From the NCBI GenBank assembly GCA_003524085.1, contig DOEC01000006.1, positions 1,146-65,145 of the forward strand: a DNA stretch of 64,000 nt, read 5' to 3'. Below, one piece after another: positions 2,752-26,323 of this stretch (position 1 is the stretch's first letter; each line of letters starts with the position of its first letter). Origin of the DNA: Bacillota bacterium. Lineage in GTDB: Bacteria; Bacillota_I; Bacilli_A; RF39; UBA660. The notes beneath the pieces were generated by a model. That model was not told the DNA's origin. It saw only the letters and a list, made by a program, of their open reading frames with translations, and searched no databases. The translations under genes and the position numbers were made by a program.

Positions 2752-2780
2752 TTGAAAATATGCTTATTTTATGGTAAAAT
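2752..2780 (+). promoter_or_regulatory. SigA-type promoter of the DUF4143 ATPase gene
   Basis: TTGAAA (2752-2757), 17-nt spacer, TAAAAT (2775-2780) with an upstream TG. An AGGAG RBS follows at 2787-2791. Confidence 0.6.
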
Positions 2781-2800
2781 TAATACAGGAGATGAGATAT

Positions 2801-4072
2801 ATGACTTTAACAAAAGAAGGATATAAAGATAGATTAATTGATAAAAAAATTAATGAGTGTTTGAAAGTTTTTGGGGCTGTTTCTATAAATGGACCTAAAT
2901 GGTGTGGGAAAACTTGGACTAGTTTAAATCACGCTAAAACAGTTAAGTATATTAATACAAACGATAAAAAATTATTTAATCTAGCTCAAATGGATGTTAA
3001 TCAAATACTTGTAGGTGATTATCCAATACTAATAGATGAATGGCAATTAATTCCACAGATATGGGATAGTGTTAGAAGAAAATGTGATGAAGATAAAATT
3101 AAAGGAAAATTCATTTTAACTGGCTCAGCTGTAGAAAAAGAAAATACAGTAGACCACTCAGGTGCTGGAAGAATATGCAAGTTAAATATGAAAACAATGT
3201 CTCTTTATGAATCTGGTGACTCAGATGGTTCTGTTTCTTTAAATGATTTGTTTAAAAATGCTGAAATTAAAAATCAACCTACTAGGGAATTAACACTTCT
3301 AGAAATATCAGATTTAATATTAAAAGGTGGTTGGCCTGAAAATACTGATAAATCAGCGAAGGACTCACAATTGATAGCTAAAAGTTATATTGAAGATATT
3401 TTAGATAAAGATATTAACGAAATAGATGGCGTTCAAAGAGATAGAAATAAGATGGAAATGTTGTTAAAGTCTCTTGCTAGAAATGAGTCAACATTAGCTT
3501 CTAACGAAACTTTAATAAAAGATATTATAGAGAATGAATATGACTCAATAAATAAAGAAACTGTTGGAGAATATTTAAATGTTTTAGATAAATTATTTTT
3601 AATTGAAAACCAACAAGCTTTTAATCCAAACGTCCGTTCAAGAGATAATGTAGGAAAAACTGCAAAGAGACACTTGACTGACCCTTCTTTAGCTTGTGCT
3701 TTACTTGGCTTAAACTATAATAAATTAATTAACGATTTAAATACTTTTGGTTTCTTGTTTGAAGCTCTAGTTGAAAGAGACTTAAGGATTTATTCAGAGT
3801 ATAATGACGGGGAATTAAGACACTTTAGAAATAATGTTAGTGGTTTAGAAGTTGACGCTATTGTAATTAACGAAGATGGAGAATATGGTGCTGTTGAAAT
3901 TAAGTTAGGTGCTAACCAAATTGAGGAAGCTAAGGAAAACCTTTTAAAATTTTATGAAAAAGTTGATAAGAAACCCAAGTTTATGTGTATCATATGTGGT
4001 TTATGGGGAAATGTAGTTAAGGACCCTGTTAGTGGAATTTATATATTACCTATAACTTCATTAAGACCTTAA
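2801..4072 (+). CDS. AAA+ ATP-binding protein, DUF4143 family
   Basis: ORF track 2771..4072. I prefer ATG 2801 because the longer ORF start overlaps the -10 box. Walker A-like GPKWCGKT, Walker B-like ILIDEWQ, and a typical ~420-aa AAA_14/DUF4143 layout. Confidence 0.7.
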   Translation: MTLTKEGYKDRLIDKKINECLKVFGAVSINGPKWCGKTWTSLNHAKTVKYINTNDKKLFNLAQMDVNQILVGDYPILIDEWQLIPQIWDSVRRKCDEDKIKGKFILTGSAVEKENTVDHSGAGRICKLNMKTMSLYESGDSDGSVSLNDLFKNAEIKNQPTRELTLLEISDLILKGGWPENTDKSAKDSQLIAKSYIEDILDKDINEIDGVQRDRNKMEMLLKSLARNESTLASNETLIKDIIENEYDSINKETVGEYLNVLDKLFLIENQQAFNPNVRSRDNVGKTAKRHLTDPSLACALLGLNYNKLINDLNTFGFLFEALVERDLRIYSEYNDGELRHFRNNVSGLEVDAIVINEDGEYGAVEIKLGANQIEEAKENLLKFYEKVDKKPKFMCIICGLWGNVVKDPVSGIYILPITSLRP

Positions 4073-6852: not shown

Positions 6853-6929
6853 ATTTTATAACATATATTAGTTTGTGTCAATATTAAATCGCAAAAATGT
6901 TTGACAAATTTACATTTGTGTGTTAAACT
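6853..6929. promoter_or_regulatory. Divergent promoter pair (small gene / lexA), each carrying a 16-bp ACA-N10-TGT palindrome
   Basis: Minus strand: TTGACA (6876-6881), 17 nt, TAAAAT (6853-6858). Plus strand: TTGACA (6901-6906), 17 nt, TAAACT (6924-6929). Palindromes are ACATATATTAGTTTGT (6861-6876) and ACAAATTTACATTTGT (6904-6919). Confidence 0.6.
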
Positions 6930-6952
6930 ATTATCAGAAAGGATGTGAAACT

Positions 6953-7570
6953 ATGGAAAAATTAACTAAAAAACAAGAAGAAGTCTTGACAGTTATTAAA
7001 AAATACATAGCTGAACACGGCTATGCTCCAAGTGTAAGAGAAGTTTGTGAACTTATGAATTTAAGTTCAACTGCAACTGTATTCGTACATATGAGACATC
7101 TTATGAAGAAAGGATATTTAAAACAAACAGATAATAAATTTAGAACACTAGAAGTTTTAGTACCAAACGAATACTTAGAAAAAAATGAAGACGTTGTAAA
7201 CGTTCCACTACTTGGAAAAGTTACATGTGGTAACCCTATTGAAGCTATTGAGTTTCCTGATGAATACATAGCTTTACCAGCATTCATGATACCTAAGAAA
7301 GAAGAAATATTTACATTAAAAACTGAAGGAATGAGCATGAAGAACGTTGGAATATATGATGGAGATATAGTTATAGTAAAAAGACAAAAGAATGCAAAAA
7401 ATGGAGATTATGTTGTAGCACTTGATGAAAATGGATTTACTACATTAAAGACATTTTATAAAGAAAATGGATATTTTAGACTACAACCAGAAAACGAAAC
7501 TATGGACCCTATTATACTTGATAAAGTTGAGATACTTGGAATTGCAATAGGTCTATATAGAAAGTTTTAG
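6953..7570 (+). CDS. lexA: LexA repressor
   Basis: ORF track 6920..7570, with the start moved to MEKLTKKQEEVL (RBS AAAGGA). N-terminal wHTH (GYAPSVREVCELMNLSSTATV). C-terminal S24 peptidase with GMSM and VVKRQ (Ser/Lys dyad context). Confidence 0.9.
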   Translation: MEKLTKKQEEVLTVIKKYIAEHGYAPSVREVCELMNLSSTATVFVHMRHLMKKGYLKQTDNKFRTLEVLVPNEYLEKNEDVVNVPLLGKVTCGNPIEAIEFPDEYIALPAFMIPKKEEIFTLKTEGMSMKNVGIYDGDIVIVKRQKNAKNGDYVVALDENGFTTLKTFYKENGYFRLQPENETMDPIILDKVEILGIAIGLYRKF

Positions 7571-7616: not shown

Positions 7617-8156
7617 CTAGCATTTGCTAATTTGAACTAAATCTACTTCTACTGGTGTTTCTTGTCCAAATAAATCTATTAAAACATTTAACTTTTCGTT
7701 TTCTAAATCAATACTTTGAACTTTACCAAACATTCCATTAAATGGTCCATCAACAATTTTAACTGAATCGCCTTCTTGTAAGTCTGTTTCAATGTCAAGT
7801 CTACTAAGTCCTTCACTAGCTAGAATTTTATCTATTTCTTGTGGAGATAATGGAATTGGTTTAGCACCCTTACCACTACTACCGATAAATCCAGTAACTC
7901 CTGGAGTATTTCTAACTGCATACCAAGCTTCGTCACTCATAATCATTTCAACAAGTACATAACCTGGAAACATCTTCTTTGTTTTTTCTTTCTTAATGCC
8001 ATCTTTAATTTCAACTTCTTTAGTTTCTGGAACAATAACTCTAAAAATATTATTTCCCATACCCATTGAGTCTTTTCTCATAAGTAAGTTTTCTTTTACT
8101 TTACTTTCATGGCCTGAATAAGTATTAACAACATACCATAACTTTTGATTTTCCAT
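7617..8156 (-). CDS. nusG: Transcription termination/antitermination factor NusG
   Basis: 179 aa. It starts WYVVNTYSGHE, has the NGN domain, and a C-terminal KOW (GDSVKIVDGPFNGMFGKV). Confidence 0.95.
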   Translation of the reverse strand: MENQKLWYVVNTYSGHESKVKENLLMRKDSMGMGNNIFRVIVPETKEVEIKDGIKKEKTKKMFPGYVLVEMIMSDEAWYAVRNTPGVTGFIGSSGKGAKPIPLSPQEIDKILASEGLSRLDIETDLQEGDSVKIVDGPFNGMFGKVQSIDLENEKLNVLIDLFGQETPVEVDLVQISKC

Positions 8157-8159
8157 AAT

Positions 8160-8339
8160 TTATCCCACGATTCCTTTCAAGAAAGTAAATAATACATCTA
8201 GTAAGTAAAAATATCCACCAAAGAACACCATTAAAGTAAGAACCATTACTGAATACTTAAATAAATCTTTACCACTAGGCCACCTTACCATCTTTTTTTC
8301 TTTACTAACACCTTTAAAAAATGCCTTGATTTTTTTCAT
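8160..8339 (-). CDS. secE: Preprotein translocase subunit SecE
   Basis: This is the ORF track frame, with the likely start at MKKIKAFFKGVSKEKKMVRWPS... after a GGAGGG RBS. Single C-terminal TM, located immediately upstream of nusG. Confidence 0.8.
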   Translation of the reverse strand: MKKIKAFFKGVSKEKKMVRWPSGKDLFKYSVMVLTLMVFFGGYFYLLDVLFTFLKGIVG

Positions 8340-8349
8340 AAGTCCCTCC

Positions 8350-8373
8350 ATAAAAAAAACACTTACGTGTTTC
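8350..8373 (-). terminator. Weak hairpin plus T-run between sigE and secE
   Basis: On the minus strand: AAACAC-GTAA-GTGTTT followed by T8, ending just before the secE RBS. The stem is only 6 bp. Confidence 0.35.
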
Positions 8374-8418
8374 AGTAATTTAAATATACTACAAATTAAA
8401 GAAAAATACAAGTGTTTT

Positions 8419-9105
8419 TTAAACTTTCATTAAACTTTTTAGCCTTTTTATAGCTTTTTTTTCAATTCTTGAGATATAGCTTTGACTTATACCTAACATA
8501 TCAGCTACTTCTTTTTGAGTATATTCTTTTTGATTATATAAGCCATACCTAAGTGTTAGTATTTCTTTATCTCGTTTATTTAAGTTTTCTATTTCTTTAA
8601 TTAGAAGTTCTTTATCAACAATACTTTCATATTCCTTTTCTACTATATCATCAGGTGTTCCTAAAACATCTTCTAAATGTAGTTCGTTACCATCTTGATC
8701 TAAATTAATAGAGTCTTCAAATGAAATTTCAACTTTCCTTCTTTTATTCTTTCTTAAAAACATAAGTATTTCATTATCAATACATCTACTAGCGTATGTT
8801 GCTAGTTTTATGTTCTTGTCTAGTTTATATGTCTTAACTCCTTTGATAAGCCCGATTGTACCAATGCTAACTAAATCTTCTAAGTCATACATTGTATTAT
8901 CATACTTTTTAGCAAGAAAAACTACAAGTCTTAAGTTGTGCTCGATTAGTTTGTTTCTTGCATGCATATCTCCATTATTACTCTTAATGACTAGCTCTTC
9001 TTCCATGCTTTTTTCTAAAGGTGGTGGAAGTATATCGGTACTTCCTAAGTAAAAAACTTTTTCTTTATCCTTAAACAAACTACTTATAAAATCAAATATT
9101 TTCAT
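8419..9105 (-). CDS. sigE: Sporulation sigma factor SigE (pro-sigma-E)
   Basis: 228 aa. YLGSTDILPPPLEKSMEEEL, HARNKLIEHNLRLVVFLAKKY, SIGTIGLIKGV, KLATYASRCIDNEILMFLR and ISQSYISRIEKKA closely follow the B. subtilis SigE pattern. It lies directly after spoIIGA. Confidence 0.9.
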   Translation of the reverse strand: MKIFDFISSLFKDKEKVFYLGSTDILPPPLEKSMEEELVIKSNNGDMHARNKLIEHNLRLVVFLAKKYDNTMYDLEDLVSIGTIGLIKGVKTYKLDKNIKLATYASRCIDNEILMFLRKNKRRKVEISFEDSINLDQDGNELHLEDVLGTPDDIVEKEYESIVDKELLIKEIENLNKRDKEILTLRYGLYNQKEYTQKEVADMLGISQSYISRIEKKAIKRLKSLMKV

Positions 9106-9106
9106 G

Positions 9107-9895
9107 TTATCCCTCCATTAATAAATAATTTAATAAAACTTCTACTTTGTTAGACTTTAACTTATCTTTTACTACACCTACTACTATATTCTTTTTTACT
9201 CCAATACCTTCTATAAATATTTTCTTAACTTTGTAACACCTCAACAATCCACCCTCATTAATACTTTGGTATGGTATATAGAAAAATGGAGTGTTTTTAA
9301 TTATACTTTCAAACTTTTTAGAATTAGTTATGATAACTGGTCTATTTGTATATGGATCTATTAAAGTGTTTCCTGTGTCCATGTAGCCTATGAGTTCTAG
9401 TTTACTTTCATTAATATAGATATCCACTTTATAATATAAACTATTAATTTCACGAATAACTTTCATTTGTTTATAATAGATATACATTATAATTGGAGTA
9501 CATATTAATATAAAGATGTAATTAATACTTATGCCTTTATGAAAAAATACCATACCAATATTCTTATAACTAAAGCTTACGTTTAAATAATATATAAACC
9601 CTCCTAAGATTATGCTTATTAAATAAAAATATACCAAGTTAGTTATAAAATACTTAAAGTCAGAATAACCAAATGTTATGAGTATTATCAAAACTGATAA
9701 AAATACCTTAAGTAAAAAGAGTGTTAAAGTAGTTAAGGGCACGAATAAAACAATGATAGTTATACTTCCTAGTAAAGAACCCAATACTATTTTTTTAATA
9801 GAAGTTCTTCTTTTAAGGACAATACTTGTAGTAAGTAAAAGTATAAAATCAAAAAAGAAGTTTAAAAATATTATTAAGTCAACATACACTTTCAT
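9107..9895 (-). CDS. spoIIGA: Sigma-E processing peptidase SpoIIGA
   Basis: 262 aa with five N-terminal TM segments and the aspartic protease motif MDTGNTLIDPYTNRPVII. Confidence 0.9.
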   Translation of the reverse strand: MKVYVDLIIFLNFFFDFILLLTTSIVLKRRTSIKKIVLGSLLGSITIIVLFVPLTTLTLFLLKVFLSVLIILITFGYSDFKYFITNLVYFYLISIILGGFIYYLNVSFSYKNIGMVFFHKGISINYIFILICTPIIMYIYYKQMKVIREINSLYYKVDIYINESKLELIGYMDTGNTLIDPYTNRPVIITNSKKFESIIKNTPFFYIPYQSINEGGLLRCYKVKKIFIEGIGVKKNIVVGVVKDKLKSNKVEVLLNYLLMEG

Positions 9896-9954: not shown

Positions 9955-10761
9955 TTATTTTCTTTTTAATCCTTTAGAATATAATTCGTTATATGACCCA
10001 TCCATTAAAGCTATTTGCATGTCTTCATAAATAGACTTTAATTCTTCTAAAGCAATATCTTTAAACATAGTCTGTCCATATATTTCTTCATTAACAGGCT
10101 CTAAAATATTTAAGTGACTCTTTAAAGTACTAGCTATTAATCTAAAGTTAAAGTAATTAAACTTACCTTTTTCATTGATAAACTTATGATAGAAATCAAT
10201 TAATGGACTAATAGATACTAATGTAGGATCATTATATTTTAGTGAGTCTCTTAAACATCTAAGTAAATCAAACTCATCTATACTGTCTCTTGAAGATGAC
10301 ATTATTTCTTTGCTTTTAATTAAGCTTTCAATATATTTTATGTCTCTTGAGTTTTCTCTAAGAGTTTTTTCTAACATTCCTCGGTTTAACAAATCCTTGT
10401 CTTTCTTATAAAATATTGGAAGTGTTCTAACATCTTTTTTAGCACGATACATAATTACTAATTTATGATTATTTCTTAAGTCAACGTCATAGTTAGACTT
10501 TAGTTCAAAGTCATTATTAAATCTAGTAGTAAAATTATCAATTTCTTCTAGTGTTGAAGGCATGGTTACTTTTAAATATTTAGTAAATTCTGCATAGCCT
10601 TCACTATAATGAAAGACTAAATTTCCAAGAAAATACTTGTTTTTAGCATCATCATTATATTTAGCAATTAACCTTTTAATTTCAGAAGTACTATACTTTT
10701 TAAAACTTCTAGTTTCAACCCCAGCCTTAATTCCAATACTATATCTATTAACTTTACCCAT
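9955..10761 (-). CDS. Hypothetical protein (268 aa)
   Basis: ORF track only, and I recognise no motif. It has a strong promoter and an AAGGGG RBS. Confidence 0.5.
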   Translation of the reverse strand: MGKVNRYSIGIKAGVETRSFKKYSTSEIKRLIAKYNDDAKNKYFLGNLVFHYSEGYAEFTKYLKVTMPSTLEEIDNFTTRFNNDFELKSNYDVDLRNNHKLVIMYRAKKDVRTLPIFYKKDKDLLNRGMLEKTLRENSRDIKYIESLIKSKEIMSSSRDSIDEFDLLRCLRDSLKYNDPTLVSISPLIDFYHKFINEKGKFNYFNFRLIASTLKSHLNILEPVNEEIYGQTMFKDIALEELKSIYEDMQIALMDGSYNELYSKGLKRK

Positions 10762-10783
10762 AAGACACCCCTTATCTAGTTAA

Positions 10784-10813
10784 AATTATACCATATTTTG
10801 TACAATATGTCAA
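10784..10813 (-). promoter_or_regulatory. Promoter with the conserved AATTATACCATATTTTGTAC core (TTGACA / TG-TATAAT)
   Basis: On the minus strand: TTGACA (10808-10813) and ATGGTATAAT. This is a 19/20 match to the cores at 37126 and 45169. Confidence 0.6.
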
Positions 10814-10832: not shown

Positions 10833-10931
10833 TTATTTGAATATGATTAATTTATGATAATTCTTAGCTGCTACTTTAGCATTTTCATTTATTATTTCAG
10901 TCTTTATATTACTTAAATATTTTTCTTCCAT
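10833..10931 (-). pseudogene. 5' remnant of a further DUF1016 paralog at the distal end of the array
   Basis: Directly after the stop and RBS of copy 1, the hand translation reads MEEKYLSNIKTEIINENAKVAAKNYHKLIIFK*. The first ~25 codons are homologous to the array N-termini, and homology is then lost. Confidence 0.6.
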
Positions 10932-10943
10932 AAGCTTTTCCTC

Positions 10944-11852
10944 CTAACTAATTTGCACAGTTTTATTTATTTTAAATTCTACTATAGTTACTTGATTATC
11001 TTTTACGTAATGAGCTTCAAACTTATTTACTGACTTTGTTATAATTATTCCAATAGTACTATTTTGAGTTATATTTTTTAAGTGTTCGTCAATATAGTTC
11101 ATATACGTTTTTATTTGACCATAGTCACTTTTCTTATATTCTCTTGATTTTATCTCTACTACACAATATCTACTTTCAACCACATTATAAAATAGATAGT
11201 CTATATAATTCTTTTTGTCTCCAATGTTAAGTTTATATTCTCTTCCGACGTAAAAATATCCACCGCCTAATTGTTTCATAAAACTATCTAAGTTTTCATA
11301 AATAATTTCTTGTAATATTTTTTCAGTATAAACTTCATAACTTTTATTAGGTGTTAACACTATTGGACTGGGGACACTTTGAATTAAAGAAAGTTCTTCT
11401 TTATTTAAAAGACTTTCTTTTGCTTCAGTTGAGAGTCTACCATACTCATTACTCTTTATTCTTTCAGCTAATGCTCTTTTACTTAAATTATCTCGTTTAG
11501 TAATATGAATATAATACTTAATTTCTTTGATATCTCTTAGTGATAATAAAATCTTGTAATGACTCCACGTCAATTGTCGCTCCAGTGGAGCGACTTTTTG
11601 AATTAATAAATAAAATTGTTGTATCTTATATAAATCTTTTTCCTTATATCCACTTCCAAATTCCTTAGTTAAAATACTTGCATATTTTTTTACTATTCCT
11701 TCTCCATAGTGTTTACCTGCTTCTACTAGTTCCCTTCCTATATTATAATTCATTGTAAGTTTTACATTATTTATCTGATAATTCTTAGCTACTACTTTAG
11801 CATTTCCATTTATTATTTCAGTCTTTATATTACTTAAATATTCGTCTATCAT
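10944..11852 (-). CDS. DUF1016/YhcG-family PD-(D/E)XK nuclease-domain protein, array copy 1
   Basis: 302 aa. YhcG-N pattern (NYNIGRELVEAGKHYGEGI, EFGSGY, LTWSHYKILL). C-terminal IDYLFYN...VVEIK nuclease core and GQIKTYMNYID. Confidence 0.8.
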   Translation of the reverse strand: MIDEYLSNIKTEIINGNAKVVAKNYQINNVKLTMNYNIGRELVEAGKHYGEGIVKKYASILTKEFGSGYKEKDLYKIQQFYLLIQKVAPLERQLTWSHYKILLSLRDIKEIKYYIHITKRDNLSKRALAERIKSNEYGRLSTEAKESLLNKEELSLIQSVPSPIVLTPNKSYEVYTEKILQEIIYENLDSFMKQLGGGYFYVGREYKLNIGDKKNYIDYLFYNVVESRYCVVEIKSREYKKSDYGQIKTYMNYIDEHLKNITQNSTIGIIITKSVNKFEAHYVKDNQVTIVEFKINKTVQIS

Positions 11853-11864
11853 AAATTTTCCCTC

Positions 11865-12773
11865 CTAACTAATTTGCACAGTTTTGTTTATTTTAAATTC
11901 TACTATAGTTACTTGATTATCTTTTACATAATGTGCTTCAAACTTGTTTACTGATTTTGTTATAATTATTCCAATAGTATTATTTTGAGTTATATTTTTT
12001 AAGTGTTCGTCAATGTAGTTCATATACGTTTTTATTTGACCATAATCGCTTTTTCTATATTCTCTTGCTTTTATTTCAACTACACAATATCTACTGTCAA
12101 CTACATTATAAAATAGATAATCTATATAATTCTTTTTGTCTCCAATGTTAAGTTTATATTCCCTACCAATAAAAGCGTAGCCTCCACCAAGTTGATGCAT
12201 AAAATCTTCTATATTTTCAAAGATTATTTCTTGTAATATTTTTTCAGTATAAACTTTATAACTTTTATTAGATGTCAACACTATTGGACTTGGGACACTT
12301 TGAATTAAAGAAAGTTCTTCTTTATTTAAAAGACTTTCTTTTGTTCCATCTGAAAGTCTATCATACTCATCACTTCTTATTATTTCAGCTAATTTTCTAT
12401 AACTTAAATTATCTCTTATAGAAATATTAGTATAATAATTGATTTTATTGATATCTTTTAAAGGTAAAAGTAATCTTATGTGTTCCCAAGTCAATTGGTG
12501 CGGCAATGCCGCACCTTTTTCAAAAAGAACATAAAATTGACGCATTCTCTTTAAATTAGATACAGAATATCCACTTCCAAATTCCTTAGTTAAAATACTT
12601 GCATATTTTTTTACTATTCCTTCTCCATAGTGTTTACCTGCTTCTACTAGTTTCCTTCCTATATTATAATTCATTGTAAGTTTTACATTATTTATCTGAT
12701 AATTCTTAGCTGCTACTTTAGCATTTCCATTTATTATTTCAGTCTTTATATTACTTAAATATTCGTCTATCAT
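11865..12773 (-). CDS. DUF1016/YhcG-family PD-(D/E)XK nuclease-domain protein, array copy 2
   Basis: 302 aa paralog. A 12-nt gap with TAG-GAGGG stop/RBS overlap separates it from its neighbours. Confidence 0.8.
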   Translation of the reverse strand: MIDEYLSNIKTEIINGNAKVAAKNYQINNVKLTMNYNIGRKLVEAGKHYGEGIVKKYASILTKEFGSGYSVSNLKRMRQFYVLFEKGAALPHQLTWEHIRLLLPLKDINKINYYTNISIRDNLSYRKLAEIIRSDEYDRLSDGTKESLLNKEELSLIQSVPSPIVLTSNKSYKVYTEKILQEIIFENIEDFMHQLGGGYAFIGREYKLNIGDKKNYIDYLFYNVVDSRYCVVEIKAREYRKSDYGQIKTYMNYIDEHLKNITQNNTIGIIITKSVNKFEAHYVKDNQVTIVEFKINKTVQIS

Positions 12774-12785
12774 AAATTTTCCCTC

Positions 12786-13694
12786 CTAACTAATTTGCAC
12801 AGTTTTGTTTATTTTAAATCCTACTATAGTTACTTGATTATCTTTTACATAATGAGCTTCAAACTTATTTACTGATTTTGTTATAATTATTCCAATAGTA
12901 CTATTTTGAGTTATAGTTTTCAAGTGTTCGTCAATGTAGTTCATATACGTTTTTATTTGGCCATAATCGCTTTTCTTATACTCTCTTACTTTTATTTCAA
13001 CTACACAAAAACAGTTCATTTTGTAATTGTATAAAAGATAGTCTATATAATTCTTTTTATCTCCAATATTGAGTTTATATTCTCTACCAATAAAAGAGTA
13101 TTCTCCACCAAGTTGATGCATAAAATCTTCTATATTTTCAAATATTATTTCTTGTAATATCTTCTCATTATAAAATTCATAGCTTTTATTTGGTGTCAAT
13201 ACTATCGGACTGGGTATGCTTTGAATTATTGAAAGCTCTTCTTTGTTTAAAATACCCTCTTTCGTTTCAGTTGAAAGTCTGCCATACTCATTACTTCTTA
13301 TTCTTTCAGCCAATGCTCTTTTGCTTAAATTATCTCGTTTAGTAATACTAATATAATACTTGATTTCTTCTACATTTTTTAATGGTAAAAGTAATTTATA
13401 ATGAGACCAAGTCAAAAGTTGCCCCACTGGAGCAACTTTTTGACTTAAATCATAAAATTGCTTCATTCTTGTTAATTCTGTAAAAGTATATCCCTTACCA
13501 AATTCTACCGTTAATTCCTTTGCATATTTTTTTACTATTCCTTCTCCATAATGTTTACCAGCTTCTGCTAGTTCCTTACCAATATTATAGTTCATTGTAA
13601 GTTTTACATTGTTTATCTGATAATTTTTAGCTATTACTTTAGCATTACCATTTATTATTTCATTCTTTATATTTTCTAAATAATTGTCTATCAT
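12786..13694 (-). CDS. DUF1016/YhcG-family PD-(D/E)XK nuclease-domain protein, array copy 3 (first in the operon)
   Basis: 302 aa paralog. Same termini as the other copies, with divergent blocks at residues ~60-100 and around the nuclease core (IDYLLYNYKMNCFCVVEIK). Confidence 0.8.
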   Translation of the reverse strand: MIDNYLENIKNEIINGNAKVIAKNYQINNVKLTMNYNIGKELAEAGKHYGEGIVKKYAKELTVEFGKGYTFTELTRMKQFYDLSQKVAPVGQLLTWSHYKLLLPLKNVEEIKYYISITKRDNLSKRALAERIRSNEYGRLSTETKEGILNKEELSIIQSIPSPIVLTPNKSYEFYNEKILQEIIFENIEDFMHQLGGEYSFIGREYKLNIGDKKNYIDYLLYNYKMNCFCVVEIKVREYKKSDYGQIKTYMNYIDEHLKTITQNSTIGIIITKSVNKFEAHYVKDNQVTIVGFKINKTVQIS

Positions 13695-13721
13695 AAATTT
13701 TTCCTCCTAATATATTTATTC

Positions 13722-13765
13722 GACAAAAAACGCGAAAAGTCTTTTTTTTATTTTGACTTTACGCG
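13722..13765 (-). promoter_or_regulatory. Terminator-like hairpin plus U-tract inside the 5' leader of the DUF1016 array (attenuator candidate)
   Basis: On the minus strand: CGCGTAAAGTC, 13-nt loop, GACTTTTCGCG, then TTTTTTG, ending ~14 nt before the GGAGGA RBS. The element is repeated at 26227-26269. Confidence 0.5.
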
Positions 13766-13855
13766 AAATTCGACGTGTTTTTTTACATGTTTTGTGTAAA
13801 CTAAGTTATAAAAAAAGAAAGGATAAACAACTTATAAAAGCTATTTGCTCCTTCC

Positions 13856-19440: not shown

Positions 19441-20370
19441 TTATATTTTAGTATAGCATTTGGTTTTCAAAAAACTTTTAATTTCTTTTATATTTTTACT
19501 TTCATAATAATTAATTAAAAGAAGTTTAAATTCATCAGTTAATTCTGAAGGTATACTAATTATTCCTAAACCATTTTTAATAAGATAATGATTAGCAAAT
19601 ATAACTGCAGTTCTTTTGTTACCATCTACATATATTTGTTTTTTCATCGTATATAAAAGTAGTTCTATTGCTTTGTCAACTTTATTATTTTTTTTATTTA
19701 TAATTTTGTTAAGTTCGTCTTTAACATCACTTTCAATGGGTATACCAGGCATCCAAGAAGTTCCACCTATTTTAACTGGAACGCTTCTTATTTTGCCAGC
19801 TGTGCTATAAAATCCTTCTATACATAGTTTATTAATTTCACAAAGTAAATTATAGTCTGTTGGTGAAAGTAATACTCCTTCACTTAGAACAAATTCCCAT
19901 GCATGTTTTAAATCAAGAACTTTTAAAACGTCAGTAGAAGATATTCCACTTACTTCCCCACCTTCAATTATTGTTTCAGTAAGAGCAAAAGTTGTTGATA
20001 TTCCTTCTAAGACTGCTTGTTTGTAAATTGTATCAACTAAATTTCTTTTTGCAAAGTCAACATTTAATTTAACTTTATCGCTAAGAACAAAATTATCTAC
20101 ATTTTCTTCTTTTAAAATATTATTTAATCTTTTTATCTCTTTTTTTAATTCTTTAACTTTTATATTATTATTTAGTATTAGGTTATATAATTCATCACTA
20201 TATTCTCCTACATATCTACTTATTAGTTTTCCATTATCTCTATAGTGAACATAAATATATTTATTACATTCCTTATCTCTAACTTCAATTGAGCCATGTA
20301 TAATAGAAGAAACTTGAGTTTCTAATCTTTTTTTATCATCTAACATACCAATTAATTCAACATTTTTCAT
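19441..20370 (-). CDS. Fic/Doc-family protein with a variant active-site motif
   Basis: 309 aa. The Doc-like motif reads QIYVDGNKRTAVIFANHYL, so the position of the conserved His in HxFx(D/N)(A/G)NKR is Gln. Confidence 0.65.
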   Translation of the reverse strand: MKNVELIGMLDDKKRLETQVSSIIHGSIEVRDKECNKYIYVHYRDNGKLISRYVGEYSDELYNLILNNNIKVKELKKEIKRLNNILKEENVDNFVLSDKVKLNVDFAKRNLVDTIYKQAVLEGISTTFALTETIIEGGEVSGISSTDVLKVLDLKHAWEFVLSEGVLLSPTDYNLLCEINKLCIEGFYSTAGKIRSVPVKIGGTSWMPGIPIESDVKDELNKIINKKNNKVDKAIELLLYTMKKQIYVDGNKRTAVIFANHYLIKNGLGIISIPSELTDEFKLLLINYYESKNIKEIKSFLKTKCYTKI

Positions 20371-25304: not shown

Positions 25305-25469
25305 TTATTTTAGGTGTTTTATAAGTTACAAAATTAAGTGAATTCATTGGAAAACCTTTAACAAAACTAAAGGCAGCTAAATCTTTGATTTCTGTCAAAA
25401 AGGTGTGACAGTTTCGCACTTTTTTGAAAACATCTTATATGAGCCATTTAAATTTCCAACCACTGGTTG

Positions 25470-25997
25470 GAATTTTTTTGAAATTTGTTAGATGGTATTA
25501 TTATAGTACTAGGTACCATTTCTTTTGCTTGAGTTTCTGTTTTTTTCTTTTAATTTGATTTCTTGTTTTCAAAGATAATTTATCGTATTCATTAATTTTT
25601 ATTTTTTTCTCTAAGTGCACGCTCACTTAAATTACCTCGTTTAAGTTATATTAATGTAATACTTGATTTCTCCTAAGTTTTTTAAAGGTAAAAGTAATTT
25701 ATAATGTGACCAAGTCAATTGGTCATCCAATGGATGACCTTTTTCAATAAAATTATGGAATAATCTCATGTATTTAAGATTTGTAATCCCGTAATTTGTA
25801 CCAAATTCTTTTGTTAATTCTTTTGCATACTTTTTAACTATACCTTCGCCGTAGTGTTTACCAGCTTCTGCTAATTCCTTTCCAATATTATAATTCATTG
25901 TTAGTTTTACATTGTTTATCTGATAATTCTTAACTATTAATTTAGCATTACCATTTATTATTTCACTCCTTATATTCTCTAAATAATTTTCTTCCAT
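25470..25997 (-). pseudogene. Fourth DUF1016 paralog, truncated and disrupted (no nuclease domain)
   Basis: Track ORF 25641..25997 (MEENYLENIRSEIINGNAKL...YYINIT) stops at ~118 aa. Homology continues out of frame (KINEYDKLSLKTRNQI...VPSTIIIPSNKF) to ~25475 and ends at a hairpin, TTCCAACC-ACT-GGTTGGAA. Confidence 0.7.
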
Positions 25998-26226
25998 GAT
26001 TACATCCTTTCACCATTACAATTGCGTCTGTTTTAAATCTAGTGACAAAAATATTTTGTTTTAATATTCACGTATGTTTTCAAAATTAGTTTTCTCATAT
26101 TTTAAATATGAAATATAAACTTAGATAAATTCTTAATAAGAAATCTACTAGTTATCTTAAAAAATAATCTCATAATTTACTCTCCTTTCTAGGAAAGGCT
26201 TTTTAACCCTCCTAATATATTTATTC

Positions 26227-26269
26227 GACAAAAAACGTGAAAAGCCTTTTTTTATTTTAACTTTACGCG
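26227..26269 (-). promoter_or_regulatory. Second copy of the DUF1016 leader hairpin plus U-tract
   Basis: On the minus strand: CGCGTAAAGTT, loop, GGCTTTTCACG, TTTTTTG. It lies within an ~95-nt block (26208-26303) that is about 85-90 percent identical by eye to 13703-13800. Confidence 0.5.
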
Positions 26270-26323
26270 AAATTTAACGTGAAATTTTACACAAAAATGT
26301 AAAATTTACTAGTGTTTTTATCA

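Follow-up and report, generated by a model that had tools for sequence, protein, structure and literature searches.

Proteins of the DUF1016/YhcG family (COG4804) are known from many phyla, where they occur patchily on chromosomes, plasmids and integrative elements as well as in type I restriction-modification (R-M) operons, and one single-sequence search returned 6135 clusters of them at 50% identity. Their embedding in type I R-M operons has been reported (PMC9881135; PMC3424549), a distant homolog from Cetobacterium recovered in this analysis lies within such an operon, and clusters of paralogs were noted earlier in Rickettsia (PMC1189080). The present analysis concerns a tandem array of three intact genes of this family (units A, B and C) in a 64,000-nucleotide (nt) stretch of Bacillota bacterium contig DOEC01000006.1 (positions 1,146 to 65,145; the whole of this stretch is referred to as the window). 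The array is interpreted as a set of nucleases that target DNA, differ in specificity and probably restrict foreign DNA, and this interpretation is held to be roughly an even call. According to it, the paralogs would differ in their nucleic-acid target specificity and the array would therefore constitute a small battery of DNA-targeting nucleases, which would restrict foreign DNA without a cognate methylase, like a type IV or solitary restriction enzyme.

The units form an operon-like array with a period of exactly 921 bp, each of them consisting of a helical N-domain and a C-terminal nuclease domain. They are separated by junctions of 12 nt each, in which the stop codon and the ribosome-binding site of the following unit overlap (TAG-GAGGGAAAATTT-ATG). 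Pairwise identity among them is 83-87% at the nucleotide and 78-83% at the amino-acid (aa) level. Tandem Repeats Finder, whose longest period handled is 500, is silent on the array because the 921-bp period exceeds this limit. An earlier reading of the bare sequence (the original prediction) had proposed three 302-aa genes with this period and these junctions, together with a 5' remnant of a further unit and a truncated fourth copy 12 kb away, and the open reading frame (ORF) coordinates and the junction sequence bear it out on each of these points (Table 1). Its assignment of the genes to the DUF1016/YhcG group of PD-(D/E)XK nucleases is likewise upheld, as both Pfam domains score above their gathering cut-offs in A, B and C (DUF1016_N, PF17761, 88-96 bits against 32.8; YhcG_C, PF06250, 101-108 bits against 32.5). 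The residues E205, D218 and E233-I-K235, which make up the nuclease motif that Kosinski et al. (2005) defined as E-D-E(I/L/V)K, are intact in all three units and invariant or nearly so in 112 homologs, in keeping with the PD-(D/E)XK fold. Furthermore, the hidden Markov models (HMMs) of the PADLOC candidate system PDC-S02 match the units at E-values of 1e-52 to 1e-56. A sequence search of the PDB returned no homolog, NCBIfam gave no useful match, and the patterns applied to viral contigs brought up no DUF1016 relatives. Marginal matches to 'DciF' (E 0.05-0.8) were rejected as spurious, since they derive from a peptide prenyltransferase deposition series.

Along the gene, the closest-matching pair among A, B and C switches repeatedly and the synonymous divergence (dS) ranges from 0 to 1.8; between B and C it is 0 in residues 1-62, 0.80 in residues 63-120, 0.14 in residues 121-172 and 1.77 in residues 173-204. 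As had been predicted, the differences cluster in residues ~63-120, with secondary variable patches by the active site in the nuclease core (residues 173-204 and the beta2-beta3 loop at 221-229). The accompanying claim of a near-identical N-terminus holds for B and C, which show two differences over residues 1-62, but fails for A, which is ~10% different. Recombination between the units, suspected at the outset, is supported by the clustering of site patterns in a triplet test (p <= 1e-4) and by a pairwise homoplasy index (PHI) of 0.336 versus 0.488 ± 0.005 (23 distinct units). Divergence at the third codon position forms a raised plateau over codons 61-126, and this block therefore looks like a set of old alleles kept distinct. 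In unit A, nt 181-360 of the ORF match the truncated terminal unit of a sister lineage at 96-100% identity, whereas nt 1-180 reach only 88-91%, and the B and C cassettes are met again, with 98-100% identity, in other flanking backgrounds. More than 116 distinct 302-aa cluster representatives (82-97% identity) were collected, and 38 block-haplotypes, in which three to five segment types per block are combined, were counted among 119 proteins. The combination of conserved ends with a diversified cassette, which the original prediction had likened to immunity or specificity gene arrays, is also displayed by arrays of at least seven other Bacilli genomes; in the two- to four-copy DUF1016 arrays of seven of these, the lowest identity is again at nt 180-360. 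The array originated by tandem duplication of the 921-bp unit, and its copy number is altered by unequal crossing-over; the unit ends are homogenised by gene conversion, and the ~180-nt block (codons ~61-126) stays distinct in each paralog. This block is swapped as a cassette between units and between lineages.

With regard to what the cassette might encode, an AlphaFold2 model of unit B (112 sequences, mean pLDDT, or predicted local distance difference test score, of 82) gives an N-domain with structural likeness to the helix-turn-helix DNA-binding domain of ParB, Spo0J and KorB. In sub-threshold HMM matches, residues 152-195 of Bacillus subtilis Spo0J and positions 57-99 of Pfam HTH_ParB both align to DUF1016 residues ~91-134, and on the basis of this shared register the recognition helix is placed, by inference, at residues 70-84. 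HTH_ParB reaches 12.5 bits against a cut-off of 22.6, in unit B only, and ParBc gave no match in the Pfam scan of A, B and C. Variability between paralogs belonging to one array peaks at residues 70-73, 75-77, 82-93, 99-101 and 116-120, a pattern repeated in seven other arrays. From the model we infer that the cassette encodes the recognition helix and the following loop and helix of a ParB-like domain, and the residues most variable between the paralogs would thus coincide with the predicted DNA-reading elements.

At the centre of the cassette (ORF nt ~259-277, codons 87-93), just past the predicted recognition helix, every unit carries its own perfect or near-perfect odd GC-rich palindrome of 17-19 bp. 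Together with that of the fourth copy, the unit palindromes account for three of the only four palindromes in the 64-kb window that are GC-rich and have 9-bp arms. The remaining perfect one (TTCCAACCACTGGTTGGAA, 25454-25472) shares the core CCA-N-TGG and is situated between A and T runs where the decayed tail of the fourth copy ends. In 65 distinct segments taken from related loci, perfect arms have a mean of 7.26, as against 3.19 ± 0.10 in synonymous-codon resamples, and the palindrome is thus maintained against codon bias. Its centre always lies 11 codons ahead of the W of the LTWSH motif, and more than 40 different arm sequences were found. Palindrome cells are paired in 90.8% of cases versus 53.9% in shuffles, and the arm covariation score is 0.775 versus 0.184 ± 0.018 (0.08-0.19 when the partners are slid). 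The feature is family-wide: of 12 distant DUF1016 genes, 11 have at the homologous codon (~99-107) a palindrome that no other in the gene surpasses, namely those of E. coli K-12 and of plasmids from Pseudoalteromonas, Burkholderia, an Enterobacteriaceae strain, Rhodococcus, Hymenobacter, Phocaeicola, Leptolyngbya, Granulicella, Cetobacterium and Clostridium. In yhcG of E. coli K-12 (locus L077, NC_000913.3, ~8131-8233 in locus coordinates), three tandem 25-bp near-palindromes (ATTCACCAGACA-A-TGTCTGGCGAAT, ATTCCGCAGACA-C-CGTCTGCAGAAT and ATTTGGCAGACG-C-TGTCTGCCAAAT) are spaced by 39 nt and encode a triplicated 13-residue QT(M/P/L)S loop.

The placement of the palindrome raises the prospect that every DUF1016/YhcG gene unites, a few dozen bases apart, a DNA-reading module and its matching gene-specific palindromic site as a tightly linked cognate pair, and that tandem paralogs are pairs insulated from one another. 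The gene's own DNA could then serve the nuclease as a self-site at which it is parked, repressed or licensed, so that a single gene would make up a self-recognition or addiction module, or the palindrome could be a break site that drives cassette conversion; this proposal as a whole is considered quite unlikely. The outer-arm class of the palindrome tracks the motif of the recognition helix, which counts in favour of a site for the cognate protein, but A and C have near-identical palindromes with very different recognition helices, which counts against a simple cognate site. A simple helix-to-arm code was rejected, as the classes correlate but are confounded by shared descent and are contradicted by the A/C pair and by loci L045 and L053. 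In a search for further genomic copies of the C palindrome, the AT-rich matches were confined to DUF1016 genes, and the other 11 matches were dismissed as chance occurrences in GC-rich contigs.

A different account of the same feature holds that the palindromes are intrinsic terminators of a ~530-nt cis-antisense RNA in each unit, or messenger RNA hairpins that tune a toxic nuclease, in which case the variability at residues 87-93 would largely be a by-product of arm covariation. On the plus strand, T5 follows the palindromes of B and C, both of which are called as terminator-like (the A palindrome is also followed by T5 and goes uncalled owing to its mismatch), and three terminator calls, including one in the array leader, compare with 0.3 expected. 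Each unit also harbours an antisense promoter-like site, TTCAAA-18-TGTTATAAT, and the strong compensatory covariation of the arms fits a hairpin as well. These plus-strand sites (TTCAAA-18-TATAAT with an extended -10 TG; 11016-11045, 11937-11966 and 12858-12887) lie ~530 nt upstream of the terminator-like palindrome; nevertheless, they consist of Ile-Ile codons from the conserved motif GIIITK and could be incidental. Moreover, no T or A tract flanks the palindromes of E. coli, Rhodococcus and Burkholderia, the dyad of the AT-rich clade extends to the base beside the centre, which is unpairable in a hairpin (A-T in 51 of 58), and the mismatches are not biased towards G.U on one strand or the other (15 vs 20). 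Taken together, a terminator or hairpin role for the palindromes is regarded as somewhat unlikely. The 19-mer of B, which occurs as an intergenic terminator in three phage contigs, can be cited for the same role; it was found in phage only in this form, and the palindromes of A and C had no phage match. The three related contigs are AT-rich and ~145 kb long (L074:3945-3963, L075:8261-8279 and L076:314-332; one has another centre base), and the hairpin stands directly 3' of a stop codon, probably by chance or convergence.

Exchange of the cassette could alternatively be driven by the element itself, as a selfish, homing-like cassette in which the nuclease or the palindrome promotes breaks in mid-cassette that are repaired from paralogous or truncated 'silent' copies, leading to cassette conversion. 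The palindrome does sit at the centre of the exchanged block, a truncated unit of one lineage shares its cassette with an intact unit of another, truncated N-domain-only units recur with palindromes that are still perfect, and the remnant in locus L006 has been converted at its 5' end. Even so, many metagenomes contain alleles A, B and C in stable form, and the breakpoints are equally explicable by selection on the helix-turn-helix module. Homing is judged very unlikely.

The restriction-like role of the battery is favoured by the occurrence of the family on plasmids and other mobile elements, by copy-number polymorphism and by the diversified module predicted to read DNA; a part in immunity or defence may be proposed from association at the level of the family alone (the PDC-S02 match and the embedding in type I R-M operons). 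A number of observations weigh against this reading. To our knowledge, no DUF1016 protein has a demonstrated nuclease, DNA-binding or defence activity. With the arc operon on one side and spoIIGA-sigE on the other, the array is at a conserved place in the core genome and not in a defence island, and none of the genes called in the 10 kb to its left and right has a methyltransferase domain. The likeness to ParB comes from a predicted model, with sequence matches below threshold (E 0.13-1), and Foldseek gave no significant match against the PDB. The palindromes were not found elsewhere in AT-rich contigs or in phage contigs, bar one probable chance terminator. Across 11 loci from different samples, each of the alleles A, B and C varies by 0-3 nt, and diversification is therefore not rapid. 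The ratio of nonsynonymous to synonymous divergence (dN/dS) was expected by the original prediction to be elevated in the variable block; it is indeed raised there (0.45-0.80, against 0.05-0.3 in most other regions of the gene), but remains below 1 everywhere. In a published test, E. coli B was not protected from T4, T5 or T7 by the one PDC-S02 representative used (bioRxiv 10.1101/2024.09.26.614923). Finally, deletion of yhcG in E. coli is synthetic-lethal with dnaB, dnaN and parE hypomorphs (PMC2672614), which points to DNA metabolism rather than defence.

This genetic interaction also lends support to the possibility that the units are housekeeping, structure-specific nucleases that resolve replication or recombination intermediates or cruciforms, with redundant or subfunctionalised paralogs and with the palindrome as a cis-regulatory hairpin or cruciform, or as a substrate. 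The folds nearest to the nuclease domain are of the Hjc, NucS, Cas4 and YraN type, the core-genome position is conserved, and a palindrome that keeps its structure while its sequence varies bears the classic signature of secondary structure. On the other hand, strains differ in the presence and copy number of the units and some have pseudogenes, the patchily distributed family often resides on mobile elements or in R-M operons, and cassettes kept distinct for so long are unexpected of a housekeeping enzyme. Such a function is deemed unlikely. The dN/dS values bear equally on the simplest explanation, namely that the units are neutral duplicates in slow decay and the variable block is the least constrained part of the protein. 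A block ratio above that of the rest of the gene yet below 1 would agree with it, as would the remnants, the truncated copies and one frameshifted copy. However, all three ORFs are intact with their catalytic residues kept, cassettes are 96-100% conserved between lineages, third-position divergence is raised too (as expected of old alleles kept distinct and not of relaxed constraint), and the palindrome is maintained against codon bias. Decay of this kind predicts stop codons and loss of the palindrome in cassettes across strains and the data show the opposite. It is considered highly improbable.

The array is not fixed in size. The genome nearest to that of the window is 'Clostridium sp. CAG:628', together with uncultured human-gut Bacilli metagenome-assembled genomes (MAGs), and exact-protein look-ups recovered the array locus from many human-gut metagenomes. 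Synteny shared across the recovered loci comprises the arc operon, the array, a 268-aa orphan, spoIIGA-sigE and secE-nusG. Copy number varies across strains, as had been foreseen, with one, two or three intact copies plus pseudogenes. Within the lineage of the window, nine loci have three-copy and four have two-copy arrays (L003, L007, L006 and L093); unit B has been lost from L003 and L007, and L006 carries a B/C chimera with novel segments. One 1.18-Mb contig has one intact and one frameshifted copy. In the sister lineage, one or two copies are intact, and behind them come a unit cut short at ~residue 150, a TetR gene, an MMPL gene and the 268-aa gene. The TetR gene and the gene for the 1239-aa MMPL transporter are kept there (L054-L063 and L072) and deleted in the window's lineage (10833-10943); since the sister lineage still has them, the 32-aa remnant is explained as what was left behind when a deletion took out the remainder of a truncated unit along with TetR and MMPL. 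The ORF of the fourth copy is found, identical and in the same context, on many metagenome contigs.

The upstream flank is replaced in two strains: by a topoisomerase gene and two small ORFs in place of the arc operon in L064 (1-2530), and by a gene for a 1135-aa Flg_new protein in the same place in L058 (231-3883). The head of the array is therefore a point of rearrangement. The first unit of L064 has a cassette resembling that of the fourth copy (KKGHAMHDE). In addition, DUF1016 genes occur at two or three separate loci, some of them as arrays, in single small Bacilli MAGs (L012/L013/L014 of one Hadza MAG, L027/L031/L041 and L021/L028), and the family has therefore expanded in this clade.

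Table 1. Coordinates, within the window, of the DUF1016/YhcG array, its parts and the related elements
Feature	Position	Strand	Description
Unit A	12786..13694	minus	First gene in the array; 302 aa, DUF1016_N + YhcG_C (ORF and Pfam)
Unit B	11865..12773	minus	302 aa; absent from some strains (L003, L007) (ORF and Pfam)
Unit C	10944..11852	minus	302 aa (ORF and Pfam)
5' remnant of a further unit	10833..10931	minus	32-aa ORF; first 26 residues match the unit start at 69-81% identity
Fourth, truncated copy	25641..25997	minus	118 aa, N-domain only, 67-75% identity; ~12 kb from the array
Variable cassette, unit A	13335..13508	minus	ORF nt 187-360
Variable cassette, unit B	12414..12587	minus	
Variable cassette, unit C	11493..11666	minus	
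Predicted recognition helix, unit B	12522-12566	minus	aa 70-84; model-based
PD-(D/E)XK nuclease domain, unit B	11886..12281	minus	aa ~165-296; E205, D218, E233, K235; A and C alike
Palindrome, unit A	13418..13436		GTTGCTCCAGTGGGGCAAC; one G.T mismatch, sister-lineage version perfect
Palindrome, unit B	12497..12515		GGTGCGGCATTGCCGCACC; perfect, 9-bp arms
Palindrome, unit C	11576..11594		GTCGCTCCACTGGAGCGAC; perfect, 9-bp arms
Palindrome, fourth copy	25721-25739		GGTCATCCATTGGATGACC; perfect
Array leader	13695..13790	minus	Hairpin CGCGTAAAGTC-N13-GACTTTTCGCG, then T6, then ribosome-binding site
Leader copy ahead of the fourth copy	26208..26290	minus	~210 nt of unrelated sequence before the fourth-copy ATG

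Ahead of unit A, ~85 nt of the array leader (13725-13790) are repeated upstream of the fourth copy (Table 1), and the hairpin of the leader, with a fold z-score of -2.1, could serve as a terminator, attenuator or operator. A search for the promoter of the array found no clear one, and Rfam gave nothing significant on the leader.

Downstream of the array lies the 268-aa ORF (9955-10813, minus strand), which is lineage-restricted, has no Pfam match and is preceded by a promoter of perfect sigma-70 consensus (TTGACA-17-TATAAT with TG). This gene was considered as a component of the array and rejected, given its restricted occurrence, its lack of a Pfam match and the fact that it stays with spoIIGA when TetR and MMPL intervene. 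The spoIIGA-sigE pair is found next to secE-nusG and lexA (7617-9895 and 6920-7570), an unusual neighbourhood for sporulation genes. Fic and AAA_14/DUF4143 genes are types often seen near defence genes; within 10 kb, the only such genes are a DUF6788 + Fic gene (19441-20370) and an AAA_14/DUF4143 ATPase gene (2771-4072). Judged from the longest related contigs, the genome is ~1.2 Mb in size.

The DUF1016 family and its paralog clusters are already known. The literature searched appears to hold no description of the cassette architecture, of the gain and loss of units at strain level, of the reading of the N-domain as ParB-like or of the conserved palindrome specific to each gene. Natural cassette swaps delimit the likely specificity module of DUF1016/YhcG proteins, and the structural hypothesis sets a ParB-like helix-turn-helix beside the nuclease. 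The gene-specific palindrome is a candidate ligand, substrate or regulatory element that is directly testable in yhcG of E. coli K-12. If the paralogs differ in DNA specificity, such arrays would let genomes of ~1.2 Mb carry several methylase-free restriction specificities in a compact form.

The array was compared with three described systems, of which diversity-generating retroelements and shufflons were rejected. A type II R-M system places a cognate methyltransferase next to its nuclease, and none lies within 10 kb on either side of the array. In a diversity-generating retroelement, the substitutions are biased to adenine; those in the cassettes have no such bias, and no reverse transcriptase is present among the annotated neighbours. 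As for shufflons and other inversion systems, inverted matches in the array are AT-rich only, with 70-93% complementarity (38 to 14 nt), and none flanks a cassette. Compared with ParB, Spo0J and KorB, which act at parS and OB sites, the units have no N-terminal CTPase domain and are instead fused to a nuclease, their HTH_ParB score is below threshold and the palindrome is a candidate site. Solitary and type IV restriction endonucleases, along with the nuclease domains of BpuSI and HsdR, likewise join a recognition module (a predicted one in the case of the array) to a PD-(D/E)XK nuclease with no adjacent methylase, restriction by the array units being putative. Unlike shufflon, hsdS and pilE/pilS systems, all array copies are in direct orientation, with neither a recombinase nor inverted repeats, and the high-frequency switching of pilE/pilS within strains is not seen in the 11 loci compared. 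Nevertheless, the array resembles multiple hsdS and pilE-pilS cassettes in its conserved flanks, its variable specificity block, its truncated donor-like copies and its recombinational exchange, and the cassette that A shares with the truncated unit of the sister lineage may have been exchanged in either direction. The closest relatives remain the members of the PDC-S02/DUF1016-YhcG family itself, with which the array units share both the two-domain architecture and the E-D-ExK motif.

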